Shown: piece by piece, positions 7,339 through 57,702 of the stretch
How the letters are laid out: every line of letters begins with the position of its first letter
How positions within the stretch are numbered: position 1 is the stretch's first letter
Assembly: GCA_019566135.1 (NCBI GenBank)
Contig: GCA_019566135.1_3044.1
Reading direction: 5' to 3' (one strand)
Source: a phage
Length of the DNA stretch: 64,000 nucleotides
Notes under the pieces: generated by a model
What the model saw: the letters and a program-made list of their open reading frames with translations, nothing else
Told to the model about the DNA's origin: nothing
The model's database searches: none
Position numbers and translations under genes: made by a program

Positions 7339-7368
7339 ATAGTATCACACTACTACCCTGTTGTAAAC
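7339..7368 (-). promoter_or_regulatory. T4-type early promoter (-35 GTTTAC 7368..7363, -10 TGaTACTAT 7347..7339)
   Basis: Conserved early-promoter module, 18-nt spacer, A/T-rich upstream element. Confidence 0.6.
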
Positions 7369-7370
7369 AA

Positions 7371-7631
7371 TTATTTTTGAATTTTATCGAGCCACTTACC
7401 AAGCTTAATCATTTCTTTAGTAGCCTTTTCCATACTTCTGAACTTAACCAATAGAGGATAGGTATCGACACCCATAACTAAACTGGTTACAAGACTGTGT
7501 TCACCCACAAGCCATAACGAATACGTTTGAATATCGAGTCCGTAATTTCTGTCTTTATGGACCCGTACACCCATCACTTCAAATTTCTCACTAGCTTTTT
7601 CTACCGCATCCAGGAAATCATCTTTAGTCAT
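7371..7631 (-). CDS. Hypothetical protein (86 aa from ATG 7631)
   Basis: ORF; ATG 7631 with AAGG SD; longer ATG 7673 start would overlap upstream gene. Confidence 0.45.
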   Translation of the reverse strand: MTKDDFLDAVEKASEKFEVMGVRVHKDRNYGLDIQTYSLWLVGEHSLVTSLVMGVDTYPLLVKFRSMEKATKEMIKLGKWLDKIQK

Positions 7632-7632
7632 A

Positions 7633-8019
7633 TTAGGCCTTAAAAGTTTTTCGCAAAAGTTCAATGATTTCATCTACATTGTTTTCGTCAACAATGCAGT
7701 GAATTTTTGTTACGCCAGAAACTATACCTTCATTAGCGGATTGAGGCTTTTCTAAAGTTACCTCAGTAAAGTATTTGAATTCTTCAGGGTAAATCTCAAA
7801 ATACGTCTCAAGTGGGCCACCCGCCATGTATTCAGTACCATCTTCCATAGTTACACGTACCACACATTCACCAGCACAATCATCACTTTCCATTTCATCT
7901 ACAACAAAACTAGGTCCGTGCTTCTCTATTAAATTTAGCATCATTACATTGCAACGGCACTCGTTAGCAAAGTCATTTTTAAATAAAGGGTTAATGATAT
8001 AAGTTTTTCCAACTTCCAC
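7633..8019 (-). CDS. Hypothetical protein (128 aa, GTG start)
   Basis: GTG at 8019 preceded by GAGGA; protein-like composition. Confidence 0.45.
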   Translation of the reverse strand: MEVGKTYIINPLFKNDFANECRCNVMMLNLIEKHGPSFVVDEMESDDCAGECVVRVTMEDGTEYMAGGPLETYFEIYPEEFKYFTEVTLEKPQSANEGIVSGVTKIHCIVDENNVDEIIELLRKTFKA

Positions 8020-8065
8020 TTTGATTTCCTCATTTTAACGGGGCTATCAAATAGCCCCTTGATAA

Positions 8066-8296
8066 TTATTGTTCAATCAGTCCCATGTAAAATTCTGCGT
8101 CTTCAGAATCCATGCCATCGCAATATTCATTAGCCATAAAGCGGGTAAGGTCTTCAAGAGGACCTTCAATGACAATAGAAAAATTGCAATAATTGGGATC
8201 ATCATGAATACTTGTGATACTAAGTTCAGGATAACGATTACGAATAATCTCTTCAATATATTCAAAATCAACGATGTCAATATCAACTTTAGCCAT
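8066..8296 (-). CDS. Hypothetical acidic protein (76 aa from ATG 8296)
   Basis: ATG 8296 lies downstream of the early promoter at 8340-8369. Confidence 0.5.
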
Positions 8297-8339
8297 ATTA
8301 TTTTCCTCTTTGATCATCAGCAGTATTGCCGATAGTTGT

Positions 8340-8369
8340 ATAGTACCATGGAAGGACAAGGATGTAAAC
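8340..8369 (-). promoter_or_regulatory. T4-type early promoter (-35 GTTTAC 8369..8364, -10 TGgTACTAT)
   Basis: Same conserved module; follows the gene 32 terminator (PeSL-type cassette). Confidence 0.65.
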
Positions 8370-8390
8370 AGTTTTGTGAAAAAATTTTTG

Positions 8391-8419
8391 AAATAAAAAA
8401 GGGGACCTCTAGGGTCCCC
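8391..8419 (-). terminator. Rho-independent terminator after gene 32
   Basis: RNA hairpin GGGGACC-CUAGA-GGUCCCC followed by UUUUUUAUUU. Confidence 0.7.
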
Positions 8420-8442
8420 AATTAATTAGTAATTATAATCTA

Positions 8443-9348
8443 TTAAAGGTCATTCAAAAGGTCATCCAGGTCCGTGTCATCAGCACTAGATGAACTACCA
8501 GAGCTTGAGCTCATAAAATCATCTTCAGTTTTTGTATTGAAGTCATCAACATTGAATGCATCCAAATCATCAGCAACTTTATCAGCTTTCTTAGCAGCAG
8601 TTGCAGCGGCACCGCCCATCACAGCAGTTCCCATAACTTGACCGAATTTAGTATTCAGTTCTTCAAATGATTTGAATTTATCTTTAGAAGTCATTTCAGA
8701 AAGGTCAACCATTTGTTCGAACAGTTCTTTCTGGAAAGATTCATCATCAATGTTTGGAATCGCAGATTGATTCAGGAATTTAGATTCGTCGTAGTTACTA
8801 AAACCAGAAACTTGTTTAACTTTCAGTACAAAGTTAGCACCTTCCCACGGACAAGTTACATCAACCGGAGTTTCACCCATTTCAACATCAACTGCAATCA
8901 TTGCATTGATTTTATCCCAGATTTTCTTACCGAAACGGTATTTAAATACTTTACCTTCATTTTCTGGAGCAGCTGGGTCTTTTACAACAAGAATATTAGC
9001 CCAGTAAGAAGTTTTACGTTTAACAAGACTGTACTCTTTATTGTCAGTGTTGTACAGATCATTTTTACTGATGTATTGACATACTGGGCAAGAATCGTAA
9101 TCACCATGGGTAGATGAACATGTTTCAATATACCATTTACCATTTTTCTTGAAACCGTGATTTACAAGAATTGCGAATGGTGCTTGTTCATCATTTTTAG
9201 ACGGAAGAAAACGAATTACTGCTTGACCGTTACCCGCATTATCGAGTTTCAGTTTCCACTCGCCTTTATCTTCAGAAGAAAAACCTTTATTGCCATTCAG
9301 TTTAGCCATTTGCGCAGCAAGTTCAGCAGTAGATTTACGTTTAAACAT
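8443..9348 (-). CDS. 32: Single-stranded DNA-binding protein gp32
   Basis: 301 aa; [23 protein letters not shown]... matches T4 gp32 as remembered; acidic C-terminus. Confidence 0.95.
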
Positions 9349-9405
9349 TTTATTTCCTTTTTAACTTAATTTAATTAACAGTTGGTGCTATGACACTTTA
9401 CCTCA
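9349..9405 (-). promoter_or_regulatory. Gene 32 translational operator (A/U-rich UUAAA-repeat leader with upstream structured region)
   Basis: Leader reads ...GUGUCAUAGCACCAACUGUUAAUUAAAUUAAGUUAAAAAGGAAAUAAAAUG, close to the T4 operator as I recall it. Confidence 0.5.
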
Positions 9406-10035
9406 TAGCTGGCATAATTTGCAATACTCTGGGTCTTCGAGAGGTATCCAACCTGAGTTGAAATACTTTACCATCGATTTAGCAGTTGTATCAGTTATAT
9501 TTATATTACCTTTAACTCTTCGCCATCCAGGAGTTTTACCGTACAGATTAGAGGATAATAATAACACATAATTCTCGTAAGCAATATGAGATAATTTCCA
9601 AGACTCTATATTAGCTCGTGATGTTTTCCAAGGTCTAAAATCGTCACGGTTCATATAATTAGCCAATCTCATATGCTCTCTAACTTCCGGGTCTTTGGCT
9701 GGATGAGTTTCACCACTCACACCAAATCCACCACCAGCATATACCAGATTAAAATAGTCTGGATTATCTCTGGCATTTACTTCAAGTTGGTATTTTCGTT
9801 CTGCTTCAATAACATCCAAGTCATCATCAATTTGAATTATTTTAACGCTCGGTTTTTGAAGCATTAGCGCATTCAAAAATCTTTTTTGTTTACATGAGCT
9901 CCAGTATTCCTTTCCGGAAGAGTCATATATTATTCCGTTCTCAAATGAGCAATTTAATTTACTACCGATATAGTAGTACGGTGGAGTCTTATTTTTGACA
10001 CGGTCTTCAAATGTAAACCAATATACTATATTCAT
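9403..10035 (-). CDS. GIY-YIG-type homing-endonuclease-like protein (SegG-like by position between 32 and 59)
   Basis: 210 aa; N-terminal IVYWFTF...YYYIGSK resembles a GIY...YIG motif; sits where I recall T4 segG. Confidence 0.55.
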   Translation of the reverse strand: MNIVYWFTFEDRVKNKTPPYYYIGSKLNCSFENGIIYDSSGKEYWSSCKQKRFLNALMLQKPSVKIIQIDDDLDVIEAERKYQLEVNARDNPDYFNLVYAGGGFGVSGETHPAKDPEVREHMRLANYMNRDDFRPWKTSRANIESWKLSHIAYENYVLLLSSNLYGKTPGWRRVKGNINITDTTAKSMVKYFNSGWIPLEDPEYCKLCQL

Positions 10036-10036
10036 A

Positions 10037-12227: not shown

Positions 12228-12257
12228 ATTATATACCATCCAAATCTTAAAGTAAAC
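12228..12257 (-). promoter_or_regulatory. Early promoter for rnh (-35 GTTTAC 12257..12252, -10 TATAAT 12233..12228)
   Basis: 18-nt spacer; diverges from the gene 34 late promoter. Confidence 0.55.
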
Positions 12258-12302: not shown

Positions 12303-15300
12303 ATGGCCGAGATTAAAAGAAAGTTCAGAGCAGAAGATGGTCTGGACGCAGGTGGTGATAAAATAATCAACGTAGCTTTAGCTGATCGTACCGTAGGAAC
12401 TGACGGTGTTAACGTTGATTACTTAATTCAAGAAAACACAGTTCAACAATATGATCCAACTCGTGGATATTTAAAAGATTTTGTAATCATTTATGATAAC
12501 CGCTTTTGGGCTGCTATAAATGATATTCCAAAACCAGCAGGAGCTTTTAATAGCGGACGCTGGAGAGCATTACGTACAGATGCTAACTGGATTACGGTTT
12601 CATCTGGTTCATATCAATTAAAATCTGGTGAAGCAATTTCGGTTAACACTGCAGCTGGAAATGACATTACGTTTACTTTACCGTCTTCTCCAATTGATGG
12701 TGATACTATCATTCTCCAAGATATTGGAGGAAAACCTGGAGTTAACCAAGTTTTAATTGTAGCTCCAGTGCAAAGTATTGTAAACTTTAGAGGTGAACAG
12801 GTACGTTCAGTACTAATGACTCATCCAAAGTCACAGCTAGTTTTAATTTTTAGTAATCGTCTGTGGCAAATGTATGTAGCTGATTATAGTAGAGAAGCTG
12901 TAGTTGTAACACCAGCGAATACTTATCAAGCGCAATCTAATGATTTTATCGTGCGTAGATTTACTTCTGCTGCACCAATTAATGTTAAACTTCCAAGATT
13001 TGCTAATCATGGCGATATTATTAATTTCGTCGATTTAGATAAACTGAATCCACTTTATCATACAATTGTTACTACATACGATGAAACGACTTCAGTACAA
13101 GAAGTTGGAACTCATTCCATTGAAGGCCGTACATCGATTGACGGTTTCTTGATGTTTGATGATAATGAGAAATTGTGGAGATTGTTTGACGGGGATAGTA
13201 AAGCACGTTTACGCATTATAACGACTAATTCTAATATTCGTCCAAACGAAGAAGTTATGGTATTTGGTGCGAATAACGGAACAACTCAGACAATTGAACT
13301 TCAGCTTCCTACTGATATTTCTGTTGGTGATACTGTTAAAATTTCCATGAATTACATGAGAAAAGGACAAACAGTTAAAATCAAAGCTGCAGGTGAAGAT
13401 AAAATTGCTTCTTCAGTTCAATTGCTGCAATTCCCAAAACGTTCAGAATATCCGCCTGAGGCTGAATGGGTTACAGTTCAAGAATTAGTTTTTAACGGTG
13501 AAACTAATTATGTTCCAGTTTTACAGCTTGCTTATATAGAAGATTCTGATGGAAAATACTGGGTTGTACAGCAAAACGTTCCAACTGTAGAAAGAGTAGA
13601 CTCTTTAAATGATTCTACTAGAGCAAGATTAGGCGTAATTGCTTTAGCTACACAGGCTCAAGCTAACGTCGATTTAGAAAATTCTCCACAAAAAGAATTA
13701 GCAATTACTCCAGAAACATTAGCTAACCGTACTGCTACAGAAACTCGTAGAGGTATCGCAAGAATAGCAACTACTGCTCAAGTGAATCAGAACACCACAT
13801 TCTCTTTTGCTGATGATATTATCATTACTCCTAAAAAGCTGAATGAAAGAACTGCTACAGAAACTCGTAGAGGTGTTGCTGAAATTGCTACGCAACAGGA
13901 AACTAATGCAGGTACTGATGATACTACAATCATCACTCCTAAAAAGCTTCAAGCTCGACAAGGTTCTGAATCATTATCAGGTATTGTAACCTTTGTATCT
14001 ACCGCGGGAGCTACTCCAGCTTCTAGTCGTGAATTAAATGGTACAAACGTTTATAATAAAAACACTAATAATTTAGTTGTTTCGCCTAAAGCTCTAGATC
14101 AGTATAAAGCTACTCCAACGCAACAAGGTGCAGTAATTTTAGCAGTTGAAAGTGAAGTAATTGCTGGACAGAGCCAAGAAGGATGGGCAAATGCGGTTGT
14201 AACGCCAGAAACGTTACATAAAAAGACATCAACTGATGCAAGAATTGGTTTAATTGAAATTGCTACGCAAAGTGAAGTTAATACAGGAACTGATTATACT
14301 CGTGCAGTCACTCCTAAAACTTTAAATGACCGTAAAGCAACTGAAAGTTTAAGTGGTATAGCTGAAATTGCTACGCAAGTTGAATTCGACGCAGGCGTCG
14401 ACGATACTCGTATCTCTACGCCATTAAAAATTAAAACTAGATTTAATAGTACTGATCGTACTTCTGTTGTTGCTCTATCTGGATTAGTTGAATCAGGAAC
14501 TCTCTGGGACCATTATACCCTTAATATTCTTGAAGCAAATGAGACACAGCGTGGTACACTTCGTGTGGCTACACAAGTTGAAGCTGCTGCAGGAACATTA
14601 GATAATGTTTTAATAACTCCTAAAAAGCTTTTAGGTACTAAATCTACCGAATCGCAGGAAGGTGTTATTAAAGTTGCAACTCAGTCTGAAACTGTGACTG
14701 GAACGTCAGCAAATACTGCTGTATCTCCAAAAAATTTAAAATGGATTGTGCAGAGTGAACCTACTTGGGCAGCTACTACTGCGATAAGAGGCTTTGTTAA
14801 AACTTCATCTGGTTCAATTACATTCGTTGGTAATGATACAGCTGGTTCTACGCAGGACTTAGAGCTATACGAGAAAAACAGCTATGCAGTATCACCATAT
14901 GAATTAAACCGTGTATTAGCAAATTATTTGCCATTAAAAGCAAAAGCTGCTGATACAAATTTATTGGATGGTCTAGATTCATCTCAATTCATTCGTAGGG
15001 ATATTGCACAGACGGTTAATGGTTCACTAACCTTAACTCAACAAACGAATCTGAGTGCCCCTCTTGTATCATCTAGTACTGCTACGTTTGGCGGATCAGT
15101 TTCGGCAAACAGCACATTAACTATTTCTAATACTGGAACGGCAACTCGTCTGATTTTTGAGAAAGGACCTCAAACTGGAACTAACCCAGTACAGACGATG
15201 ACTATCAGAGTTTGGGGAAATCAGTTTGGTGGCGGTTCAGATACAACACGTTCTACTGTATTTGAAGTTGGTGATGAAACGTCTAATCACTTTTATTCTC

Positions 15301-18026: not shown

Positions 18027-21000
18027 ATGGCTACTTTAAAACAAATACAATTTAAAAGAAGCAAAACCGCAGGCGCGCGTCCTGCTGCTTCAGTATTAGC
18101 CGAAGGTGAATTGGCTATAAACTTAAAAGATAGAACAATTTTTACTAAAGATGATTCAGGAAATATCATTGACTTGAGCATTTCCACTGGCGGCAATATC
18201 AGTGGAAATATCACTCAAACTGGTGATTATTTACAAAACGGCACGTATAATCTTAATGGAAACCAGTTTGTTTATGCAGGAAAATACATTGAATTTTTAC
18301 CTAAAACCGCTGGTAATGGTGCGTGGGCAAATCAACACCTCAATAAAGCTCCTATCTTTACAGATTTAAGTTCAACTACTTCTGTTTCAGAATATCATCC
18401 ACTCATTAAGCAGCGTTATAAAGATGGGACTTTTTCTGTTGGTACGTTAGTAAACGAAGGAAGTTTTAAAATTCATTATATTAATGAATCGGGAACTTCA
18501 AAATATTGGACATTTCGTAGAGATGGTGGATTTGTTGTTGATACAGGAAGTTTGACAGTAACAGATGGAAATATTTCTGCCTCTGGTAATATTAATTCAG
18601 CTACTGGGGTAGTTTCTGCTCCGCAGATTAATACAAAGACTATAGTTTTTGATACAAAAGCGTTCGGACAATATGATTCGCAGTCATTAGTTCAATATGT
18701 TTATCCTGGAACAGGTGAAGCAAACGGAATCAATTACCTTCGCAAATTCCGTGCTAAATCTGGTGGTACAATTTATCATGAATTAGCTTCTGCGCAAACC
18801 GGAAAAAGTGATGAACTTTCTTGGTGGACTGGTAATACAGCGGTTAATAAACAAATGGGCCTTCGCAATGATGGGTCTTTAGTACTACGACGTTCACTTG
18901 CAATTGGTACAATTACAACAGATGAAAACATCAATAACTACGGTTCCACTGGAGCAATGGGCGAATGTTATATAGTTATTGGTGATGCATCAACAGGTTT
19001 ATCATACAAAAAAACTGGGGTATATGACTTAGTTGCTAGTGGTCTTTCTGTAGCATCTATTACTCCTGATAGTTTCCGTAGTACGCGCAAAGCGATTTTT
19101 GGACGCTCGGAAGACCAAGGCGGTACGTGGCTTCTTCCTGGTCAAAACTCATCTCTTCTTTCAGTTCGTACTGAAGCTGACCAAAACAATAATGGAGATG
19201 GTCAGACACATATTGGCTATAATAGTAATGGTAAATTTTATCATTATTTTAGAGGCAGAGGAAGAATGGCCATTGGAATGGCCGAAGGACTTATTGTTGA
19301 ACCAGGAATTTTAGATATTAAAACTGGTTCAAATACATTAAGTTTGCGTGCTGATGGTACCGTCGCTTCTGTTCAAACATTAAAGCTTAATAATGGATTA
19401 TATTTTAATAGCGATGGAACTAACGCTTCTCTAATTTTTAAAGCAGCTTCAGGTATTGATGGTACTAAACAAATACTTTGGGAAGGTGGTACTCGTGCTG
19501 GGCAGAATAAGAGCTATGTAACTGCTAAAGCTTGGGGAAATTCATTTAATTCATCTGGCGATCGTAATCGTGAAACGGTTTTTGAAGTATCAGATGGACA
19601 AGGATATTATTTTTATGCTCAACGCGTAGCTCCTGCACCAGGTTCAACAACTGGTGCAGTTCAATTTAGAGTTGCCGGAGCATTATTAACTTCTGGCGGT
19701 ATTACATCATCTGGTTCTATTGTTACTGAATCTAGCTTAGTTGCAAATAATGGATTATCTGTAAATGGACAAGCTAAATTTGGTGGAACAGCAAATGCAT
19801 TAAGAATTTGGAATGCCGAATATGGCGCCATATTCCGTCGCTCAGAAACAGCATTGCACATTATTCCTACTCTTAAAGACCAAGGAGAAAATGGTGAAAT
19901 AGGTAATCTTCGTCCATTGAGCATCTCACTTAACAACGGTATGGTTCAAATGCGCCATTCTGTCACGTTAGGTGATGATGGTGCAGGCGGTAATATGGTG
20001 ACGGTTGATAATGATTCTAAAGTTATAGTAATGACGACTAATAGCCGTATTAGTCCTAACTTCCGTATGCAAATTGGACAGTCGTCTTATATTGATGTGG
20101 AATGTACTGATGCTGTGAGACCTGCTGGAGCCGGTTCTTTTGCTTCACAGAATAACGAAAACGTTCGCGCTCCGTTCTATATGAATATTGATAGAACAGA
20201 TACAAGCACTTATGTTCCTATTGTGAAACAAAGATACGTGCAAAATAATAGTTGCTATTCTATTGGTACTTTAATTAATGGTGGTAACTTTAGAGTTCAT
20301 TATCATGAAGGTGGCGATGGCGGTTCTACAGGCGCAATTATAAAAGATTTAGGATGGGAATTTAATAAAAACGGTGATTTTTATTCTCCTGGTAAATTAG
20401 GCGCTGGAAATATTAGAATAGGTACTGATGGTAATATCACGGGTGGTTCTGGTAACTTTGCTAACTTGAATACAACTTTAAACCGTAAAGTTAATTCTGG
20501 TTTTATTGCTTATGGAGCAACGGCAGGTTGGTACAAGTTTGCAACAGTAACAATGCCTCAAGCTACATCAACTGTTTCAATTACAGTCACCGGTGGAAAT
20601 GGATTTAATTCTGGGTCATTTAATCAGTGTGCAATTTCTGAAATTGTTCTTCGTACAGGAAACAATACTCCTAAAGGATTAAATGCTGTTCTATATAGAA
20701 GAGGACTAAATTCATTTAGAGATATTGCTTGGGTTAATACATCTGGTGATACATATGACATTTATGTTAATATGGGAACATATGCTAATCAGTTGATATT
20801 TAACTATAGTTCTGTTGATAACGCCACAGTTCAAATTATTGGCGCATTCAGCTCAGCTCAAAATCCTGTTGATGCATTGCCAGAAACATATGTTAAAGGT
20901 CAGGTAGCAGATGTATTGACTAACTTAGTTGATTCTGGAAAAACGAAGCGTTTTGTTGCTGAATCTGAAATAGCTGTTAATAATCAAACTGGATTACGTA

Positions 21001-23686: not shown

Positions 23687-23839
23687 TCAATTAGTTGACT
23701 TTGCTATAATATCATCAGACGCTTGATTTGTAAACTGGTCTGTGGTATTTTCTTCAAAAATTTTTTCTACGAATTCCTTGAACGACTCGCGTTCCTGAGC
23801 TACATTATGCTCGATTACCTTTTCAAGATTATGACTCAT
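23687..23839 (-). CDS. Small acidic ORF (50 aa, MSHNLEKVIEHNVAQERESFKEF...), coupled to the arn stop
   Basis: ATG overlaps the arn stop (ATGA); below the track's length cutoff. Confidence 0.4.
   Translation of the reverse strand: MSHNLEKVIEHNVAQERESFKEFVEKIFEENTTDQFTNQASDDIIAKSTN
23706..23735 (-). promoter_or_regulatory. Early promoter for asiA (-35 GTTTAC 23735..23730, -10 TATTAT 23711..23706)
   Basis: 18-nt spacer; 32 nt upstream of the asiA ATG. Confidence 0.5.
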
Positions 23840-25494: not shown

Positions 25495-26130
25495 TCACAG
25501 TTCAGATGCTACAGTGATTACTGCTTCAATGTTTTCTGCCGAGCGTTTAATGTCAAGATACACATTACCGTTTTTAGCGATTTTACAAGACATTCCGATA
25601 TCAGTAAATTTCTGAATATGATGTTCCATCATTTTGTATCCAAAAATTCGCATATTTCCATTATTGTTAATTTCAAAATTGCGAATTCCGTGGGTGCGTT
25701 TTTCTAAAATAGCGAGATAGTTACTGCGATAAGTTTCAACCTTTTTAAGAACAAATCCATTTTCATCTAAAAGTTTTAACATAAAGTCTTTATCTTCTTC
25801 CATATCAGAAGTAATCTCGCGAGCTTTACGAGTTGCTCGTTTTTTCAGCAGTTCAGGAGCGTTTTCCTGTGCATATAAAGTTGCTGCGTTTGAAATAATA
25901 TCTTGCGCTTCGCCTGTGATGATTAATCCATCACCTGATTTCTCTACCAGGCCTTTTTTAATCAATACCCCAATATTACTATTAACTACTGCGTTACCTA
26001 AATCTGGATGCACCTCACGAACTTCTGCGGCTGTAATGAAATCTTTCTTAGCAATAGTAATTAAAATCGCAGCAGTTTTTTCATTCAGAACATCGTTAGA
26101 AGCTTTGATGATGTAAGTTACTTTAGACAT
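25495..26130 (-). CDS. motA: Middle-transcription activator MotA
   Basis: 211 aa; MSKVTYIIKASNDVLNEKTAAILITIAKKDFITAAEVREV... matches T4 MotA. Confidence 0.93.
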   Translation of the reverse strand: MSKVTYIIKASNDVLNEKTAAILITIAKKDFITAAEVREVHPDLGNAVVNSNIGVLIKKGLVEKSGDGLIITGEAQDIISNAATLYAQENAPELLKKRATRKAREITSDMEEDKDFMLKLLDENGFVLKKVETYRSNYLAILEKRTHGIRNFEINNNGNMRIFGYKMMEHHIQKFTDIGMSCKIAKNGNVYLDIKRSAENIEAVITVASEL

Positions 26131-26171
26131 TTTCTAATCTCCGTAATTCTGTATCAGTAGTTGATAGTTGT

Positions 26172-26201
26172 ATAGTACCACAGTATGCTTTGGTTGTAAA
26201 C
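26172..26201 (-). promoter_or_regulatory. T4-type early promoter upstream of motA
   Basis: -35 GTTTAC 26201..26196, -10 TACTAT 26177..26172, 18-nt spacer. Confidence 0.65.
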
Positions 26202-26223
26202 CGTTTTGTGAAAAAAATTTTTG

Positions 26224-26253
26224 AAATAAAAAAGGGAGAGCCGAGGCTCTCCC
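26224..26253 (-). terminator. Rho-independent terminator after the gene 52 operon
   Basis: GGGAGAGCC-UCG-GCUCUCCC followed by UUUUUUAUUU. Confidence 0.7.
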
Positions 26254-26258
26254 TAAAA

Positions 26259-29351: not shown

Positions 29352-29451
29352 AGTAAACGTTTAATACATCAATCATTAAAACGATTGGGAATATACTCAA
29401 AACTATTAGTATTATAACTACATTCCATATAGCTTTAATAATCTTTTTCAT
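29338..29451 (-). CDS. Small membrane peptide (37 aa, MKKIIKAIWNVVIILIVLSIFPIVLMIDVLNVYFGFM)
   Basis: ATG 29451 lies downstream of the early promoter at 29480-29509; the track's longer ORF is a translated promoter. Confidence 0.45.
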   Translation of the reverse strand: MKKIIKAIWNVVIILIVLSIFPIVLMIDVLNVYFGFM

Positions 29452-29479
29452 TTTCTGTTCCTCCGTAGTTGATAGGGTA

Positions 29480-29509
29480 ATAGTACCACGGAAGAACAGT
29501 CTTGTAAAC
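29480..29509 (-). promoter_or_regulatory. T4-type early promoter
   Basis: -35 GTTTAC 29509..29504, -10 TGgTACTAT, 18-nt spacer. Confidence 0.6.
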
Positions 29510-29516
29510 AACTTTT

Positions 29517-29698
29517 TTAAAAATATTCGTAATAAATGTGAATACCAACTACTACCGCTGAAACCTGTGCAACCCACCATGCACAAGCAATAAGTACAGA
29601 ATTTAAAATTTTCATAATAACCTCATTACAAAAGTAAATGTTAAACAAATTACTGGAATACTAATTAACCAAACAAAACACCACCATAGTGAACTCAT
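29517..29698 (-). CDS. Two overlapping tiny hydrophobic ORFs (28 aa MSSLWWCFVWLISIPVICLTFTFVMRLL at 29612..29698; 32 aa MKILNSVLIACAWWVAQVSAVVVGIHIYYEYF at 29517..29615)
   Basis: Consecutive ATGA-coupled ORFs; very short, so speculative. Confidence 0.3.
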
Positions 29699-29958
29699 AG
29701 CTCAATCTCAGCGATTTTCATTTCATTACTATTAATAGCCGCTTTAAGACTATCTGAAAGAATTACATTCCAGTGGTCATTCATATGACCATTAACTAAG
29801 CGTGTAATTTCTTCAGGAGTTGAAAAATAAGGCTGATCAGACTCCCAATGCGATAATCCTAAGCGAGTATAAATCATGCCTTCATCATCGCTAGAATATT
29901 CAACTGACACAAACTCATCAGTTATTTTATGTTTAGCGTAATAAAATTTAAATTTCAT
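29695..29958 (-). CDS. Hypothetical protein (87 aa from ATG 29958)
   Basis: ATG 29958 with GGAG SD, downstream of early promoter. Confidence 0.5.
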   Translation of the reverse strand: MKFKFYYAKHKITDEFVSVEYSSDDEGMIYTRLGLSHWESDQPYFSTPEEITRLVNGHMNDHWNVILSDSLKAAINSNEMKIAEIEL

Positions 29959-29992
29959 TTTATTCTCCAAATCCGTATCAGTTGATAGTTGT

Positions 29993-30022
29993 ATAGTACC
30001 ACGGTCCTTGTGGCATGTAAAC
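29993..30022 (-). promoter_or_regulatory. T4-type early promoter
   Basis: -35 GTTTAC 30022..30017, -10 TACTAT 29998..29993. Confidence 0.6.
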
Positions 30023-30038
30023 CATTTTATGAAATTTT

Positions 30039-30596
30039 TTAAATGGAAAGATACCATCCGTTGTAGTTGCTTTTTCTTACAACCTTACGAAGGTCTTCTC
30101 TATCACCGATGAACTTCGGAGTGTACTGGATGACACCTGGATGAATTTCTTTAGTGTTGAATATAATTATACAGTCAGCGACTTGATGATTTAGAATGGG
30201 CCCTAGATTTATTCCAGAACCGTATGGATACTCTCCGCTGTATCCTGTCGTTACTGAAATCCATCGAGAGTCAGTTTGGTGTGTTTTAACTTCTACCCGA
30301 AGCCCGCAGTATTTTGGATGTGCTAAAACATCCCATGCATATGTATACGGATCATCGACGTCTTCTTGACCTTTATTAACATACCCACTTAACCAATCTG
30401 CTACAACATACTCAGCATACACTGCGATACGGCATCTTTCGATAACTTCTGCTTTATCCTGGTTCGGGTTTTGTTTTAAAGAGTATCTTGCTGTATCAGC
30501 AATTTTGACCTTCATTTCACTAGTCAAGTCACTGTTCGATAGGGTAAATGTCGGAATCTGAAATAGTCTCTGTAAACCCGGATTCGTTTTCTGCAT
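30039..30596 (-). CDS. denB: Endonuclease IV
   Basis: 185 aa; position between ndd region and rIIB. Confidence 0.8.
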   Translation of the reverse strand: MQKTNPGLQRLFQIPTFTLSNSDLTSEMKVKIADTARYSLKQNPNQDKAEVIERCRIAVYAEYVVADWLSGYVNKGQEDVDDPYTYAWDVLAHPKYCGLRVEVKTHQTDSRWISVTTGYSGEYPYGSGINLGPILNHQVADCIIIFNTKEIHPGVIQYTPKFIGDREDLRKVVRKSNYNGWYLSI

Positions 30597-34228: not shown

Positions 34229-34282
34229 TTCAATATCCTCATTTACCCAATTAATTATACCACATCCTTGTGGTAAAGTAAA

Positions 34283-36103
34283 CTACTGGCTCATCCATTC
34301 TTTACGAAGGTCAGCATTATCTCCCATGAGCATTTCAAAAAGCTCTTTCCAGTTCTCAGGAAGTTTAACAACATCATATACTGGATTTTGAATCATTTCA
34401 CGATATTCAGATTTTTCCAAAGAGCCAAGTCCTTTAATATAACGGATGCTATGTTTAGGTAGAGCATCTTTGGCACTCTCATATTCAGCGACTGTATAAA
34501 ACCATTCTTGTTTTTTACCGACCTGAGCGATGATTACAGGAGTTTTGACAAAGCGAATTCGTCCTTGCTCAAACAATTCTGGCCAATTACTAAAAAATCC
34601 GAGCAGAGAAGGATAAATGCTTCCTAGACCATCATGGTCAGCATCAGTCATAATAGCAATATTGCGATAATTCATGTTTTCAGCTTTTTCACCAAGAACT
34701 AATCCAGTGATTGCGCAAATATCAAATAGTTCTTTGTTTTTAAGCATATCTGCATAAGACATACCCCAACTGTTGAGAACTTTACCACGCAATGGATAAC
34801 CACCATGAAGTTCTTTATCACGAACATCAATAAGATATCCGATAGCAGAATCACCCTCAGTCAAGAAAAGAGTAGTATCAGCATCTTTACCGCACAGATT
34901 AGCTTTAATATGTTTATGAACCTTTGCCTTAGAAGCCTTTTTAGCTGCTTTAGTTTCAGCTGCTTTTTCTGCTGCCAATTTACGAGCTAGTGCAGCTTCA
35001 ATAATTGGCATTAAAATTGCTTCATTATTTAAAATAGCGCGTGAAATCTTTTTAGCGTCAAGTTGAATATGACTACGGATTTCACCAAATGGAGAAGTCA
35101 AACGCTCTTTAGTTTGAGAATCAAATCGCATGTTTTTCATATCACGAACAAACATAACGATAGTCAAACATTCTTTAACGCGTGCTTTAGTTACATCAAT
35201 TTTGAACTTACGTTTGATTTGTGGAATAAGGTCTTCACAAATATCATCCATAACACAGTCAATGTGATGGCCACCATTCTTAGTATGAATGTTATTGACG
35301 TATGTTAATTGACGAAATCCATCCGGTGAACGACCAACCGCAATAGAACAATTTTCTTGTTCTTGAACAATAGCATGTTCATCATACTGTAGTGCATATT
35401 TCTTAAAATTGCCCTGAACCTTTTTACCATTAAAGGTAAATTGAATATCAGGATAAACAACAGCAAGTGTCTGGAGACGATCTAGTGTAATGTCAAGATA
35501 AACTTGGGACAGCTCATTAGTTTCAAATGACATAAAATCTGGAATGAAAGTAACACGAGTTCCTTTCCATTTTCCAGGAATAGTTTCCCAGGATTTATTT
35601 TCCATGCCATTTGAACAACGAACTACAATATTATTTTGACCATCGCCAGTTTCACCGACAAACATCACAGAAAAAATGTTAGTTAAACTAGAACCAACAC
35701 CATTCATACCACCGGTGACACGTTCTTTATCATCACCAAAGTTACCACCCGCTTTTGGAATAGTCCAAGCAGCAACTGGACCAGGAATTTCTTCACCGGT
35801 AGGTGTTTTAACCATCGCTTGTGGAATACCACGACCGTTATCTTCAACTGTTACTTGATTGTTTTTAATAGTAACATTAATTTTATTTGCGAATTTAAAC
35901 TTAGTACGAATACCTTCATCTACTGAGTTATCGATAATTTCATCAATAAGCTTAACAAGACCAGGTACATACTGAACACTTTCCCATTTACCAAACAGAA
36001 AGCGCTCATGCATTTCATTAGCAGAAGAGCCAATGTACATGCCACTACGCTTTTTGATATGTTCAATATCGCTCAGAATTTTAATTTCATTCTTAATCAT
36101 CAC
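34283..36103 (-). CDS. 39: DNA topoisomerase II large subunit, unsplit (gene 39 and gene 60 portions in one ORF)
   Basis: 606 aa contiguous GyrB-like ATPase plus TOPRIM; no split, no mobA, no bypass gap. Confidence 0.9.
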   Translation of the reverse strand: MMIKNEIKILSDIEHIKKRSGMYIGSSANEMHERFLFGKWESVQYVPGLVKLIDEIIDNSVDEGIRTKFKFANKINVTIKNNQVTVEDNGRGIPQAMVKTPTGEEIPGPVAAWTIPKAGGNFGDDKERVTGGMNGVGSSLTNIFSVMFVGETGDGQNNIVVRCSNGMENKSWETIPGKWKGTRVTFIPDFMSFETNELSQVYLDITLDRLQTLAVVYPDIQFTFNGKKVQGNFKKYALQYDEHAIVQEQENCSIAVGRSPDGFRQLTYVNNIHTKNGGHHIDCVMDDICEDLIPQIKRKFKIDVTKARVKECLTIVMFVRDMKNMRFDSQTKERLTSPFGEIRSHIQLDAKKISRAILNNEAILMPIIEAALARKLAAEKAAETKAAKKASKAKVHKHIKANLCGKDADTTLFLTEGDSAIGYLIDVRDKELHGGYPLRGKVLNSWGMSYADMLKNKELFDICAITGLVLGEKAENMNYRNIAIMTDADHDGLGSIYPSLLGFFSNWPELFEQGRIRFVKTPVIIAQVGKKQEWFYTVAEYESAKDALPKHSIRYIKGLGSLEKSEYREMIQNPVYDVVKLPENWKELFEMLMGDNADLRKEWMSQ

Positions 36104-37642: not shown

Positions 37643-37924
37643 TTAATTGAACAGTGGAGCGATGCGTTTCAGAAGAGTAGCAGCACCTTTAGCGAATTTT
37701 ACATCATGAAAAACAGTTTCTTCTTCTGTAACAACTCGAACTTTAATATTTTCACAATCCCAATTTTTACGAACAATCTTCAAAAGCTGCAGTAAATCTT
37801 TACATTCAGCAATATCGATAACACATCCACGAGAATCTTCCATTATCGCACGATAACCGTAAGCCATACCATAATCATTGAAAGATTGCTCGATGATAAT
37901 TAAGTTTTCCATTTTATTCTCCAA
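37643..37924 (-). CDS. Hypothetical protein (93 aa)
   Basis: ORF with ATG; promoter-like region upstream. Confidence 0.5.
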   Translation of the reverse strand: MENKMENLIIIEQSFNDYGMAYGYRAIMEDSRGCVIDIAECKDLLQLLKIVRKNWDCENIKVRVVTEEETVFHDVKFAKGAATLLKRIAPLFN

Positions 37925-37936
37925 GTTGTTTTCTGT

Positions 37937-37979
37937 ATCAGTAGTTGATATTGATATAGTACCATAATCAACTACTGAT
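37937..37979 (-). promoter_or_regulatory. Promoter-like element with -10 TACTAT inside a 13-bp perfect inverted repeat (ATCAGTAGTTGAT, 17 nt, ATCAACTACTGAT)
   Basis: Arms at 37937-37949 and 37967-37979; the usual GTTTAC -35 is replaced by one arm. Confidence 0.45.
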
Positions 37980-38019
37980 GTATATAGTTTTATGAAAAAA
38001 ATTTAAACTTTATGCAAAT

Positions 38020-38965: not shown

Positions 38966-38995
38966 ATTATACTCTGGTCCCAAGAGTTTGTAAAC
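38966..38995 (-). promoter_or_regulatory. Early promoter (-35 GTTTAC 38995..38990, -10 TATAAT 38971..38966)
   Basis: 18-nt spacer; the TATAAT sits inside a GGACCA/TGGTCC inverted repeat. Confidence 0.55.
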
Positions 38996-39432: not shown

Positions 39433-39442
39433 AATTTTCTCT

Positions 39443-39946: not shown

Positions 39947-40009
39947 TTTATTATCCTCAGTAGCTATGGTGTTATAATACCACAACTAACCGAGGAAGTA
40001 AACAACTTT

Positions 40010-41188: not shown

Positions 41189-41420
41189 ATTTAATTAGTA
41201 ATTTACAGACACTTTCATCTAGTGTAATTACCGTATCTGTATTACTGTGATATGATTGTTTTTCAATTCGTTTAATTGCTAATATAGTATCACTTATAAG
41301 ATAAAGCTTATGAAGGAGCTCAGCTCCTGTTACCATAACATCGAGATTATCTTGCTTATTAGTATGCTTCCTTATACCATCTATTAGACGATTTAAATAT
41401 TTTGAATTGATGTTAATCAT
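41160..41420 (-). CDS. Small protein, dexA-upstream family member 3 (86 aa, weaker similarity)
   Basis: Similar size and pattern. Confidence 0.45.
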   Translation of the reverse strand: MININSKYLNRLIDGIRKHTNKQDNLDVMVTGAELLHKLYLISDTILAIKRIEKQSYHSNTDTVITLDESVCKLLIKFEEAIRGNN

Positions 41421-41426
41421 ATAGCC

Positions 41427-43846: not shown

Positions 43847-43876
43847 ACTATAACATTTTTACCTTGGCTTGTAAAC
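43847..43876 (-). promoter_or_regulatory. Early promoter for srd (-35 GTTTAC 43876..43871, -10 TATAGT)
   Basis: 18-nt spacer. Confidence 0.45.
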
Positions 43877-45181: not shown

Positions 45182-45211
45182 ATCATATCATCGTTAGAAA
45201 GGAAAGTAAAC
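45182..45211 (-). promoter_or_regulatory. Early promoter for modB/modA (-35 GTTTAC 45211..45206, -10 TATGAT)
   Basis: 18-nt spacer; 27 nt upstream of the modB ATG. Confidence 0.5.
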
Positions 45212-50369: not shown

Positions 50370-50415
50370 ATTAACCTTTATTCATAAAAGCATTAAAAAT
50401 TTGATCGTCAATAGA
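50367..50415 (-). repeat. 49-bp gene-junction direct repeat, copy B
   Basis: See copy A. Confidence 0.8.
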
Positions 50416-51003
50416 AACTTTTACTTTAGGCTGTTCTTCAAACGGTAATTCATATCCACATATTACAATTTTGTGATCGATACCAAAATACACAGAAGCA
50501 ATATTATTAATATTATTTTCAGTGAAATCTAAATCAACATCAATATCTTTTTGACTAACGCTCAAAGGATAATTAATACGAATAATTCGATTATCTTTAA
50601 CAAAGATTCCACCGACATACTCTGTGCTGCGTTTAAAGTTTACACGTTTCCTAAATGAAAAATATTCAGGTTCTTTATGGGCTCGACTCATAGGGCTTAA
50701 AGTGTATTCCGAATATGAAATATCAAATCCTACACCTTCAATATGAGCCAAAGTGTCATGATTAAACCAATTATAATCGTATGCCAAATCCATTAAATTG
50801 TAATATGTGAAAGGCACCGGATTAACATCATATGTTGTACCTTTAAAATCTGCCCAGGCAACGATTTCGTTATCTTTAACAATTACAAAAATTGTGCCAA
50901 TAAGATATCCACGGTTATTTTCATCAGGCGTTATATTATAACATTGTGCATCAGGAAATTTACCGTATTTAAACGGTGGATTTTTGTGCATATAATAAAT
51001 CAT
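50371..51003 (-). CDS. Gene 61.2-position protein (210 aa); possibly the anti-DarT factor AdfA family
   Basis: Position between 61 and sp; internal repeats of an IFVKDN-like motif; AdfA assignment is from memory of the literature. Confidence 0.45.
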   Translation of the reverse strand: MIYYMHKNPPFKYGKFPDAQCYNITPDENNRGYLIGTIFVIVKDNEIVAWADFKGTTYDVNPVPFTYYNLMDLAYDYNWFNHDTLAHIEGVGFDISYSEYTLSPMSRAHKEPEYFSFRKRVNFKRSTEYVGGIFVKDNRIIRINYPLSVSQKDIDVDLDFTENNINNIASVYFGIDHKIVICGYELPFEEQPKVKVSIDDQIFNAFMNKG

Positions 51004-51004
51004 A

Positions 51005-51298: not shown

Positions 51299-51358
51299 GA
51301 TAATCTCCTCAGTAGTTTATGTTTATATAGTATCTCAATTTCCAACAAAAGTAAACAG

Positions 51359-51800: not shown

Positions 51801-51858
51801 AACAATCTCCTCATTTAACCAACAAGACTACTATACCATAGTCTTGTCAGCTTGTAAA

Positions 51859-55741: not shown

Positions 55742-56472
55742 TCACCATTATAATCTTTTTTCACAATATGAGTTTCGCCAGTATTCCACCAATGATCAAC
55801 CAAGTAAAAATGACGAGAATATACATGAAGACTTCCAACATTCCATATAATAGAACCTGCTTTATACTGACGAGTTGAATCACCTGCATTCAAATCAGAT
55901 ACTAATTTATCTAGTACGTATTTTTGCCATGCATAATCATTACGGAATCCGAAGACAACGTCATTTGAACGCATGCTCACTACTGCATTGACTTTCTTAT
56001 CACGAATCAGGTACTGTACTGTATTCGTACACATGAAATCTGACATACCATCTTTATTGTAGTCAAACTGCATGGATGGACGAGTATAAATCATGATACC
56101 GCGTCGAGAATCAGGATTTTGACCAAGTTCAGCTAAACACATATCATACTGGGCATAGTTATCTTCTGACCAGATGGCCCAACCATAATTCGAGTTAATT
56201 TCGCCTTTAGAAGATGCTACCTGTTGCCAAATCTTCGGTGTTTCACCTGGAATATCTTTAACAAACAAACTTTTAGATTTATACCATTCAAGTTCACGCT
56301 GAATGTATTCATCATTAAGAGCGCCAAAAATAAATGGTTCATCTGCTACAAATGATGCGCCAATAATTTCAATAGTTTTAACGCCAGTTTTATCAACTAC
56401 GAAATCTTTTTCCTTTAATGCAAGCCCCAAATGAAGACGGATTTCTTCAACTGTCATAGAGTCACTAATCAT
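55732..56472 (-). CDS. 42: dCMP hydroxymethylase gp42
   Basis: 246 aa (same as T4 gp42); thymidylate-synthase-like fold motifs. Confidence 0.93.
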   Translation of the reverse strand: MISDSMTVEEIRLHLGLALKEKDFVVDKTGVKTIEIIGASFVADEPFIFGALNDEYIQRELEWYKSKSLFVKDIPGETPKIWQQVASSKGEINSNYGWAIWSEDNYAQYDMCLAELGQNPDSRRGIMIYTRPSMQFDYNKDGMSDFMCTNTVQYLIRDKKVNAVVSMRSNDVVFGFRNDYAWQKYVLDKLVSDLNAGDSTRQYKAGSIIWNVGSLHVYSRHFYLVDHWWNTGETHIVKKDYNGEWK

Positions 56473-56479
56473 TTAAACC

Positions 56480-56629
56480 TCAATTGATACATTCATATTT
56501 AACTTGTAACAGTAATAAACCCCAACCTATAATAAGTGTCGGAATCATACAAGGAACCGTTACGCTATAGTATATACTTATTATAATCATCAAGATTAAA
56601 AGCAATACTGCTAAAATTTTGCTTTTCAT
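56480..56629 (-). CDS. Small hydrophobic peptide (49 aa, MKSKILAVLLLILMIIISIYYSVTVPCMIPTLIIGWGLLLLQVKYECIN)
   Basis: ATG overlaps the imm stop (ATGA); stop overlaps the gene 42 SD. Confidence 0.45.
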   Translation of the reverse strand: MKSKILAVLLLILMIIISIYYSVTVPCMIPTLIIGWGLLLLQVKYECIN

Positions 56630-56877
56630 TCCTTCTCTCTGATGATAATTACTTGATTCGGTTGTGCAGATTTTTTAGTTTCACCCGCAATTGACCAAAT
56701 AAATGTAATAAACCAACCAATAATTGACCAGTTAAACAGTAAAGATGTGAAAAAGATTCCTACTGTCGATTTTGACCCGCGCATCAAGGCGATGAACCAC
56801 GGAAGCATGTATATAATAATAGCTAACACGCCTGAAACTAAAACCATAAAAATTGAACCTGCTACTAAAGTTTCCAT
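56626..56877 (-). CDS. imm: Superinfection immunity protein Imm
   Basis: 83 aa with two TM segments; size and position as T4 imm. Confidence 0.8.
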   Translation of the reverse strand: METLVAGSIFMVLVSGVLAIIIYMLPWFIALMRGSKSTVGIFFTSLLFNWSIIGWFITFIWSIAGETKKSAQPNQVIIIREKE

Positions 56878-56884
56878 GTTTTCC

Positions 56885-57265
56885 TCACTTAGTCAAATTT
56901 TTTACACATGAATTATAAGAATTCACTACATACTCCATCGGAGCATTTTTACCAGTACGCCATTGGTAATTATTAGCCCAATTTGCCCAAAGTTCAGCGC
57001 AGTAGTTTTCAATTTTTTCTTCGCGTGTAATTACATCCGAATTACGATATGCTTGAGCAGATTCATCTGGACGAATAGCTTCGTCAAAATTCGCCTGCAT
57101 TTGTTCTACTGTCTGTTTTGGAGCTTCTTTATAACACTTGACATTAGGATTATAAAATTTGCTTGAACAGTTTACAATTTTTCCTACATCAGATTGATTT
57201 ACTACCGGTCCTTGAGCTACACAACCAGTAAGACCCAATGTAATAACCAAAATAGCAATTTTCAT
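56885..57265 (-). CDS. Lipoprotein (lipobox LTGC), 126 aa
   Basis: MKIAILVITLGLTGCVAQG...; several Cys; next to imm. Confidence 0.55.
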   Translation of the reverse strand: MKIAILVITLGLTGCVAQGPVVNQSDVGKIVNCSSKFYNPNVKCYKEAPKQTVEQMQANFDEAIRPDESAQAYRNSDVITREEKIENYCAELWANWANNYQWRTGKNAPMEYVVNSYNSCVKNLTK

Positions 57266-57275
57266 AATAATTTCC

Positions 57276-57533
57276 TCAAATACAAGTAGTAATTACTCCA
57301 GTAGTGCTTACACAGGTATTACCTAATTGAACACCAAGCGTTCCATTAGTATTCATATGAAGATTATCATCAATTTTTGTTGATACTTTACCATTCATGT
57401 GAATAACAGTATTAGATTCAATCACATTCTGAGTGTCATTTTCAATATCAATAAATGGAACAGCTGCTAATGCAACTAGAACAACTGCTAATGCAACTAA
57501 ACACGCTGCTAAACAACCATAAACAATTTTCAT
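57276..57533 (-). CDS. Membrane-anchored small protein (85 aa from ATG 57533)
   Basis: MKIVYGCLAACLVALAVVLVALAAV...; ATG downstream of early promoter. Confidence 0.5.
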   Translation of the reverse strand: MKIVYGCLAACLVALAVVLVALAAVPFIDIENDTQNVIESNTVIHMNGKVSTKIDDNLHMNTNGTLGVQLGNTCVSTTGVITTCI

Positions 57534-57567
57534 TTTATTCTCCAAATCCGTATCAGTTGATAGTTGT

Positions 57568-57597
57568 ATAGTACCATGGAAGAACAGAGATGTAAAC
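57568..57597 (-). promoter_or_regulatory. T4-type early promoter
   Basis: -35 GTTTAC 57597..57592, -10 TGgTACTAT 57576..57568. Confidence 0.65.
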
Positions 57598-57676
57598 CGT
57601 TTTGTGAAAAAATTTTTAATGAATTTACAGGACCTAGAATCATCTATTTTTCCTAAGTATAGATTTATATTACTTG

Positions 57677-57702
57677 TATGAAAAAGGGACCCGGAGGTCC
57701 CT
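57677..57702 (-). terminator. Rho-independent terminator after gene 43
   Basis: AGGGACC-UCCG-GGUCCCU followed by UUUUUCAUAC. Confidence 0.65.

Follow-up and report, generated by a model that had tools for sequence, protein, structure and literature searches.

The early promoters (Pe) of phage T4 combine an upstream (UP) element, a -35 hexamer, a TGn motif and a -10 hexamer, and they show "additional regions of consensus" (Hinton 2010, PMC2988021). In T-even phages, elements of this kind have been described as promoter-early stem-loop cassettes (PeSLs), which consist of an AT-rich region, a stem-loop just upstream, the core TTTACW-N17-TAYWAT, and a 3' end with a Shine-Dalgarno (SD) sequence and start codon (Comeau, Arbiol & Krisch 2014, PMC4122927). 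Here we analyze repeated promoter motifs in a 64,000-nucleotide stretch of phage DNA (GenBank assembly GCA_019566135.1, contig GCA_019566135.1_3044.1), called the window below, in which an initial annotation had read eight minus-strand sites as PeSL-type cassettes. It is very probable, in our view, that these motifs are sigma-70 early promoters of a T4-like phage and that seven of them are PeSL cassettes of the published T-even form. The cassette type is already in the literature as the PeSLs, and the finding in the window is a correct rediscovery.

The PeSL concept goes back to the phages RB49 and phi1, in which a terminator/promoter cassette flanking ORFans was proposed to be a linker for modular shuffling (Arbiol 2010, PMC2839356). 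The RB49 cassettes have near-consensus TTGACA/TATAAT promoters with G/C-run stems that often lie between or over the -35 and -10, and mini-circles have been shown experimentally; the T-even elements were termed analogues, not homologues, of the RB49 PeSLs (PMC2839356). The same work drew an analogy to morons and to the gene cassettes of integrons. Like these, the window cassettes bring a small accessory open reading frame (ORF) with its own expression signals between resident genes. Unlike them, they have neither an integrase nor an attC-type site, insertion goes via the homology of the resident promoter and ribosome-binding site (RBS), and the ORFs are co-oriented with their neighbors.

The window matches the T4 Pe promoters (PMC2988021; PMC6024815) in architecture (UP, -35 GTTTAC, TGn, -10), strand and downstream genes, and the sequences are nearly identical; the differences are a few spacers, extra cassette-led ORFs ahead of cef and imm.1, and a different ORF between denB and ndd.6. 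The PeSL-type reading holds up against PMC4122927 as well: the AT-rich region, TTTACW-N17-TAYWAT, and the SD sequence with ATG all fit, and orthologous cassettes are present in T4, PST, RB32, T2, and T6. As described for the T-even PeSLs, the cassettes lie near indels in hyperplastic regions, and the denB-ndd.6 locus of the window (29450-30060) falls into the region of Fig. 6A in PMC4122927, which involves ORF268/269 of PST. Unlike the published PeSLs, only 4 of the 15 early promoters in the window (14 with an exact GTTTAC plus one degenerate copy, the seventh of the family described below) have a convincing stem-loop upstream, the joints of exchange map to the UP region or the start codon and not to the stem-loop, and the enrichment of indels is not significant in this sample.

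Early promoters of the window

The pattern GTTTAC-N17-19-TAnnAT has 16 matches on both strands of the whole window, against 0.78 expected, and 15 of the 16 lie on the minus strand; shuffled windows had at most 3 matches, and in 0 of 100 shuffles was the number of 16 reached. All eight annotated sites (7339, 8340, 26172, 29480, 29993, 38966, 47284, and 57568) match GTTTAC-N18-TA(C/T)(T/A)AT on the minus strand. The letters given for the -35 (GTTTAC, with an 18-nt spacer) are right, but the sigma-70 convention makes the -35 TTTACA and the spacer 17 nt. The A/T-rich upstream element assigned to all eight is found at six (76 to 88% A+T in the 25 nt 5' of the -35; window, 64.7%) but not at 47284 (56%) or 38966 (64%), and the UP regions of the aligned early promoters give the consensus aAaAattTtt.A.AaA. 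The TG of an extended -10 is present at 7339, 8340, 26172, 29480, 29993, 47284, and 57568, and 38966 lacks it. The count of "at least eight" sites was correct as far as it went, but it left out a seventh family copy (37956-37985) and six other early promoters. Downstream of the -10, an alignment of 14 early promoters of the window yields the weak consensus A.aactaTcAacTa.

Judged by synteny, the window is a segment of a T4-like phage (Tequatrovirus) that follows T4 from denA/nrdB via rIIB/rIIA to genes 45/rpbA. Pieces of 6 kb and 25 kb have 95 to 97% identity to hundreds of Tequatrovirus genomes, with no identical record among them, and BLAST aligns the window colinearly with T4 (AF158101) from ~137.4 kb past the T4 map end to ~32 kb. 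The T4 genes spanned are denA, nrdB, nrdA, td, frd, 32, 59, 33, and rnh; the tail-fiber genes 34 to 38 and t on the plus strand; then asiA, motA, 52, ndd, denB, rIIB, rIIA, 60+39, motB, dexA, dda, modA/B, and soc; and finally 56, 61, 41, uvsX, 42, imm, 43, regA, 62, 44, 45, and rpbA. It follows from this colinearity that early and middle transcription of this T-even phage runs along the minus strand of the window.

The window was compared with T4, PST, RB32, T2 (AP018813), and T6 (AP018814). Because the T4 records NC_000866 and AF158101 have no promoter features, the orthologous T4 promoters were located by pattern and synteny; orthologues were first sought by ungapped matching of the upstream flank, and loci with indels were examined by anchored extraction. 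For each annotated site, synteny and pattern identify a T4 orthologue where a known Pe promoter is located, and the sites are conserved in position in all five phages. The early promoters outside the repeat family described below are nearly invariant between orthologues.

Four strong minus-strand hairpins with a T-run, at 8419-8401, 26254-26233, 47349-47328, and 57702-57685, stand upstream of annotated sites and close gene 32, motA.1, soc, and gene 43, respectively. With stems of 7 to 9 bp, 4 to 6 G-C pairs, and T5-6 tails, they have the makeup of intrinsic terminators. Four sites had been said to follow such a hairpin directly; the number four is correct, but only three follow directly (14 to 31 nt before the -35), the distance at the fourth being 87 nt. 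The folds upstream of 7339, 29480, 29993, and 38966 are weak or not of the terminator type.

A diverged repeat family of seven cassettes

An unbiased repeat search returned, as the largest direct-repeat family of the window (D1, 75 nt), copies at 8331, 26163, 29471, 29984, 37947, and 57559. One of these, at 37947-38021, is the seventh cassette missing from the initial annotation. To judge from their alignment, the seven cassettes (7339, 8340, 26172, 29480, 29993, 37956, and 57568) are a diverged repeat family of ~100 nt, with the following members.

7310..7393, minus strand: cassette upstream of frd.1; UP region; -35/-10 at 7368-7339 (GTTTAC..TGATACTAT); predicted +1 at 7332; leader TACCCTATCAACTTGAGGAGAATAAAATG; RegB/S1-type RBS at 7322-7312; ATG at 7312-7310.
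8294..8419, minus strand: cassette upstream of frd.3; gene 32 terminator at 8419-8401; UP region; promoter at 8369-8340; predicted +1 at 8333; ATG at 8296-8294.
26128..26254, minus strand: cassette upstream of motA; terminator at 26254-26233; promoter at 26201-26172; predicted +1 at 26165; leader ACAACTATCAACTACTGATACAGAATTACGGAGATTAGAAAATG; ATG at 26130-26128.
29449..29545, minus strand: cassette upstream of an ndd.4-like ORF of 37 aa; no terminator; promoter at 29509-29480; predicted +1 at 29473; leader TACCCTATCAACTACGGAGGAACAGAAAATG; ATG at 29451-29449.
29956..30058, minus strand: cassette downstream of denB; promoter at 30022-29993; predicted +1 at 29986; predicted RegB/S1 site GGAGAATAAAA at 29968-29958; ATG at 29958-29956; would drive an 87-aa ORF at 29695-29958 (phrog_2390).
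37909..38010, minus strand: seventh family cassette; UP region; -35 degenerate (ATATAC, 37985-37980); -10 at 37961-37956 in TGGTACTAT; predicted +1 near 37949; leader ATCAATATCAACTACTGATACAGAAAACAACTTGGAGAATAAAATG; predicted RegB/S1 site (GGAGAATAAAA) at 37922-37912; ATG at 37911-37909; would drive the ORF at 37643-37911 (phrog_3720).
57531..57702, minus strand: cassette downstream of gene 43; terminator at 57702-57685; promoter at 57597-57568; predicted +1 at 57561; predicted RegB/S1 site at 57543-57533; ATG at 57533-57531; would drive an 85-aa ORF at 57276-57533 (phrog_4189) ahead of imm.1.

An identity matrix over the 59 positions outside the core hexamers separates the six annotated members of the family (mean, 55%) from random pairs (27%) and from the other early promoters (32%). 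When all the annotated copies are aligned, as the initial annotation had proposed, six (57568, 29993, 26172, 8340, 29480, and 7339) are mutually similar and belong to the family, while 38966 and 47284 turn out to be plain early promoters, which are no nearer to the family than any other early promoter and share only the core promoter with it.

The similarity extends into the leader, of which several copies had been said to share the first ~20 transcribed nucleotides. The sharing is real, but the exact 20-mer ACAACTATCAACTGATACGG occurs only twice in the window, at 29973-29992 and 57548-57567 (chance expectation, 0.00), and its first 6 nt are probably untranscribed. The cassettes at 29993 and 57568, which lie 27.5 kb apart, have 49 identical nt in common (TGGTACTATACAACTATCAACTGATACGGATTTGGAGAATAAAATGAAA), which end at ATGAAA; the ORFs beyond are unrelated, and the -35/-10 spacers differ at most positions. 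In the motA copy (26172), the start of the 20-mer carries an ACT insertion and is followed by divergent sequence, the copy at 8340 has only ACAACTATC in common with the leader, and the copies at 7339 and 29480 share another block, TACCCTATCAACT. The other pairs of the family share exact stretches of 18 to 49 nt, and the longest in the tandem pair 29480/29993 is 12 nt.

What is shared beyond the core comes in three pieces: ACAACT/TACCCT between the -10 and +1; ATCAACT(ACT)GATAC... as the first transcribed bases from the predicted +1; and GGAGAAUAAAAUG(AAA), which is the SD sequence and the published optimal RegB/S1 target. The claim that the leader is conserved beyond the needs of a promoter is therefore borne out as to the sharing itself, and the 3' half of the leader has a known functional reading in the SD sequence and the RegB/S1 site. 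For the 5' half, family-wide promoter context together with common descent is a plausible explanation.

Leaders, predicted start sites and predicted RegB/S1 sites

For the T4 regions that Pe26.4 and Pe148.6 transcribe, the upstream ends are given as map positions 27,044 and 150,727 (PMC6024815); Pe26.4, with its transcript start at map unit 27,044, is the orthologue of the cassette downstream of gene 43. On the T4 sequence, each of the two positions is 7 nt downstream of the -10 hexamer. Transferred to the window, this places +1 at the A of ATCAAC directly behind ACAACT, and the first six bases of the shared leader (ACAACT), between the -10 and +1, are probably not transcribed. The predicted 5' untranslated regions (UTRs) are 19 to 37 nt long, and each ends in an SD sequence and ATG.

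The T4 endoribonuclease RegB, together with ribosomal protein S1, cuts within the SD sequence of early mRNAs (PMC1702504, PMC3014915). The RegB/S1 consensus is the 11-mer GGAGRAYARAA, with the optimum GGAGAAUAAAA, in a single-stranded intergenic position of an early transcript (Durand 2006, PMC1702504). On sequence alone, the 3' end of the window leader equals this target: it is, letter for letter, the optimal GGAGAAUAAAA, includes the SD sequence, and lies in an unstructured intergenic RBS. The window has five matches to GGAGRAYARAA, where 0.31 would be expected; all five are on the minus strand, and four of them are in RBSs of the family cassettes. These four predicted sites, at 7312, 29958, 37912, and 57533, carry the exact GGAGAATAAAA and conform in sequence to RegB/S1 targets; the leaders of motA, the ndd.4-like ORF, and frd.3 have weaker variants. 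Cleavage by RegB/S1 inactivates early mRNAs within minutes.

The fifth exact GGAGAATAAAA lies at 20379-20389 on the minus strand, antisense inside the late tail-fiber gene 37, and is probably there by chance.

Five leaders were folded, and none had a significant structure (z-scores of -0.7 to +1.1 against shuffles); an unstructured leader is what a RegB/S1 site and an efficient RBS require. A structured RNA element was rejected on the folding result. A search of the whole window at gathering thresholds found no Rfam family.

Exchange of small ORFs at the cassettes

The cassettes had been said to mark the boundaries of accessory gene blocks. This is so at 7339, 29993, 37956, and 57568, where a joint of ORF presence or absence is seen, but the other three family cassettes are without one. 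In the slot behind the cassette between denB and ndd.6, T4 has nothing, RB32 and T2 have ORF269, PST has ORF269 and ORF268, and the window has only ORF268; in all of these, an 8-codon stub and then ndd.6 follow, and every joint is at AAAATGAAA. The homology of this cassette breaks at 29953-29965, at the start codon, against T4, PST, RB32, and T2. Between gene 43 and imm.1, the leader is fused directly to imm.1 in T4, PST, and RB32; the window has an 85-aa ORF in between, and T2 has a different ORF of 83 aa, with a different spacer and a different 3' half of the leader. Between frd.2 and frd.1, a 100-aa ORF is inserted at the edge of the UP region in the window, and in T4, PST, and RB32 an ORF of 29 aa separates the leader from frd.1; homology of this cassette breaks at 7323-7329 against T4, PST, RB32, and T6 and at 7381 against T2. 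The ORF at 37643-37911 behind the seventh cassette is absent from T4, PST, RB32, and T6 (joint at 37905, at the start codon), and T2 has both the ORF and the cassette.

The presence/absence polymorphism that the initial annotation had suggested looking for between related phages is thus seen, and it extends to the databases: ORFs next to the cassettes occur in 181, 269, and 319 phage records, compared with 931 that match the surrounding region. The exchanged accessory ORFs (7371-7673, 29695-29958, 37643-37911, and 57276-57533) belong to PHROG families without a known function. A scan of IMG/VR for TGGTACTATACAACTATC gave 27 stretches in ~7 T4-like contigs, with at most nine matches per contig, and the same promoter and leader precede at least six unrelated ORF starts in these T4-like contigs.

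The cassettes themselves also vary. From phage to phage, orthologous loci have exchanged spacer variants, and the frd.3 cassette has the spacer AAGCATAAAGCTTTA in T4 and ATCCTTGTCCTTCCA in the window; the motA cassette is identical in T4, RB32, and T2. In T4, the imm.1 and ndd.6 loci both carry the ACT indel, which neither locus has in the window or PST; two IMG/VR genomes are discordant, so this concerted pattern is only weak evidence of gene conversion.

In T4, the start codon of the ndd.6 cassette opens only an 8-codon stub (MKIAEIEL and a stop codon, ~167019-166993), of which the first four codons are those of imm.1. The same stub is found in the window (29695-29721, minus strand) as the in-frame C terminus of the ORF268-like protein. 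From its sequence, it looks like the scar of a copied imm.1 cassette.

Some copies of the leader are annotated under another name in public records. The attL/attR features of T2 (AP018813) are copies of the cassette leader TATCAACTACTGATACAGAA (6093-6112 and 29301-29320 in the coordinates of the record pieces), and those of T6 (AP018814) are copies of TGGTACTATACAACTATCAACTGATACGGATTTGGAGAAT (24507-24546 and 33590-33629, likewise in the coordinates of the record pieces). Given these matches, we regard the features as annotation artifacts and not as attachment sites.

Proposed role of the cassettes and alternative explanations

We propose that the early promoters, each with an A/T-rich UP element, a -35 (G)TTTAC(A/T), a 17-nt spacer, and an extended -10 TGnTA(C/T)(T/A)AT, some of them directly behind the terminator of the preceding unit, would be fired by the host polymerase immediately after infection, as in T4. 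Each promoter would be followed by the short (19- to 37-nt) unstructured 5' UTR, a GGAG-type RBS, and the start codon. By analogy with T4, the terminators would insulate neighboring units, and the leader would provide strong but short-lived translation. T4 recombination operates on short homologies, and exact stretches of 19 to 49 nt between copies would therefore allow the cassettes to act as portable linkers, at which small ORFs could be inserted, lost, or swapped and sequence could be copied from one cassette to another; part of this is visible in the genomes compared. The comparison suggests that the cassettes are one route of ORF turnover in the window but not the main route.

How strong is the case for such a role in recombination? 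At the level of individual loci, the alignments point clearly to the cassettes as sites of exchange and of copying between copies, and to this extent their description as recombination modules is upheld; an excess over ordinary junctions is not significant. About 100 minus-strand genes were called, and each junction was scored for an indel end in any of the five relatives (one-sided Fisher test). Several results weigh against a special role. Indel ends were found at 4 of 12 early-promoter junctions and at 22 of 86 others (p=0.40, not significant), and for the repeat family, the seventh cassette included, the numbers were 4 of 7 and 21 of 85 (odds ratio 4.1, p=0.08, not significant). Among the five relatives, no indel event had both of its ends in cassettes. 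At the cassettes, the joints fall on the start codon or within the UP region and not in the hairpin, so the stem-loop is not implicated, and the 12 nt of exact homology between the tandem cassettes 29480/29993 are short for the mini-circle model. The majority of whole-ORF indels are at ordinary gene junctions without a cassette, where the two adjoining alignments overlap by 1 to 15 nt. They include 5464-5873, 6477-7002, 9412-10036, 36432-36805, 41195-41427, 50380-51004, and 60493-60713, at which BLAST gap lengths of 0 to -12 nt correspond to a few bases common to both flanks and the joints are in RBS, start, or stop motifs; from these alignments, ordinary junctions appear to be the commoner route of ORF turnover in the window. 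On the side of transcription, all start sites in the window are transferred from T4 map positions, which are perhaps partly predicted themselves, and a literature search found no global data set of T4 start sites.

Could the elements be purely regulatory and similar only because RNA polymerase, the ribosome, and RegB select for the same sequence, while ORFs turn over at any gene boundary through microhomology of translation signals? The absence of a significant enrichment of indel ends at promoter junctions speaks for this, as do at least nine whole-ORF indels at cassette-free junctions with joints in ATG/RBS motifs; the joints at the cassettes likewise lie at AAAATGAAA, a generic start context, and the near-invariance of the nonfamily promoters is what plain purifying selection predicts. 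We nevertheless consider this explanation unlikely. It does not account for the 49 nt that are identical at loci 27.5 kb apart and stop at ATGAAA before unrelated ORFs, or for identity in spacer and leader at positions where other early promoters are free to differ. Among paralogous as well as orthologous copies, spacers and halves of the leader occur in mosaic combinations, the gene 43-imm.1 cassette of T2 having the spacer/leader type of another locus, and the ndd.6 cassette of T4 carries the first four codons of imm.1 as its 8-codon stub, as a copied segment would. That the matches are a chance or compositional artifact of an AT-rich genome has a negligible probability. Generic sigma-70 consensus scans are indeed not enriched over shuffles (81 versus 75, 86 versus 80, and 98 versus 89), but the specific pattern exceeds its expectation (16 versus 0.78), and 15 of the 16 matches share a strand; for the 20-mer, the chance expectation is 0.00, and five other phages have the sites at conserved positions. 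We regard the artifact as refuted by pattern enrichment, 20-mer, positional conservation, and the unbiased repeat search.

Another explanation concerns the block behind the -10, ACAACT followed by ATCAACT(ACT)GATAC, with its dyad TATCA..TGATA. This block might be a signal of its own, either an operator for early shut-off or a nuclease/recombinase site that moves the cassettes. Orthologous loci of the family keep the block unchanged even when they differ in spacer and distal leader, and the weaker consensus A.aactaTcAacTa extends over all 14 early promoters; moreover, the shut-off of early promoters has been described as not completely understood (PMC3014915), and a specific protein acting at PeSLs has been a matter of speculation (Arbiol 2010, PMC2839356). 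On the other hand, the dyad is only 5 bp long and occurs in only some family members, our analysis identified no candidate protein, an Rfam match and RNA structure are both lacking, and common descent plus constraints of initiation and escape explain the conservation equally well. We therefore hold such a signal to be very improbable. The broader proposition that the block is the cis-target of early shut-off, or that the leader/GGAGAAUAAAAUGAAA start motif is the joint of an integron-like system for slotting in ORFs, is in our opinion improbable.

With the cassettes as early promoters of the PeSL type, conceptually nothing is new; the PeSL idea is reproduced, together with the RegB/S1 site and the consensus of T4 early promoters. 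A modest addition is that the joints of exchange are at the start codon and the UP edge and not at the stem-loop and that the cassettes are not demonstrably hotter than other junctions, which tempers the published claim. For annotation, the cassettes define the early transcription units of the phage and flag recently exchanged small accessory ORFs.

Other early promoters and further observations

The early promoters outside the repeat family, the first six of which were not in the initial annotation, are the following.

12228..12257, minus strand: early promoter of rnh, the orthologue of T4 Pe148.6.
23706..23735, minus strand: early promoter ahead of asiA, inside asiA.1.
34254..34283, minus strand: early promoter preceding rIIA.1, within the 3' end of gene 60+39.
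39974..40003, minus strand: early promoter ahead of motB.2 (RBS GGATAATAAAA).
45182..45211, minus strand: early promoter ahead of modB.
51327..51356, minus strand: early promoter ahead of sp (spackle).
38966..38995, minus strand: ordinary early promoter, GTTTAC-N18-TATAAT; precedes a MotB-family ORF (ATG at 38922).
47313-47284, minus strand: ordinary early promoter with the soc terminator (47349-47328) 14 nt upstream; would drive mrh.2 (ATG at 47257); no similarity to the family.

For motB.2, a RegB site of the GGAU type has been listed (Durand 2006, PMC1702504). The promoter at 38966-38995 adjoins a deletion in T2 (38996-39914), which begins exactly at the edge of its -35. In the same neighborhood, three MotB-family ORFs (PF17613/phrog_1671) are arranged in tandem at 38020-39432 on the minus strand, one of full length (38449-38922), one shorter (38020-38439), and one with the C-terminal part only (38995-39432); this is the most rearranged region among the relatives.

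An early-type promoter, GTTTAC-N18-TACAAT, lies at 12756-12785 on the minus strand, antisense inside the late tail-fiber gene 34. It is conserved in T4 (151291), has no SD sequence or ATG within 80 nt, and may be the source of an antisense or origin-related transcript. Outside the TAnnAT pattern, TTTACA-N17-TATAGT with TG is found on the minus strand at 43847-43875 (modA/srd gap) and 51830-51858 (gene 41/dmd gap); both are likely to be early promoters as well.

A family of GGGCC-UUCG-GGCCC hairpins (repeat family D5) stands at gene boundaries without promoters, at 30640-30669, 30872-30901, 60470-60499, and 62640-62669. This hairpin and other GC hairpins (27861-27845 and 28223-28208) are within ~40 nt of indel ends at 27879, 28191/28229, 30610, and 60493. 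As a separate class of indel hot spots, the promoterless GC hairpins (27861, 28223, 30656, and 60485) were rejected, since 4 or 5 of ~12 adjoin an indel end against a background of ~25%, which is no clear excess.

Compared with T4, the window is without the nrdB and td introns (with I-TevI/III), mobE, mobA, segF, and segA, and segG is present. Gene 60+39 is unsplit in the window, unlike in T4; the regions concerned are 552-1730, 4601-5461, 34283-36103, and 9403-10035.

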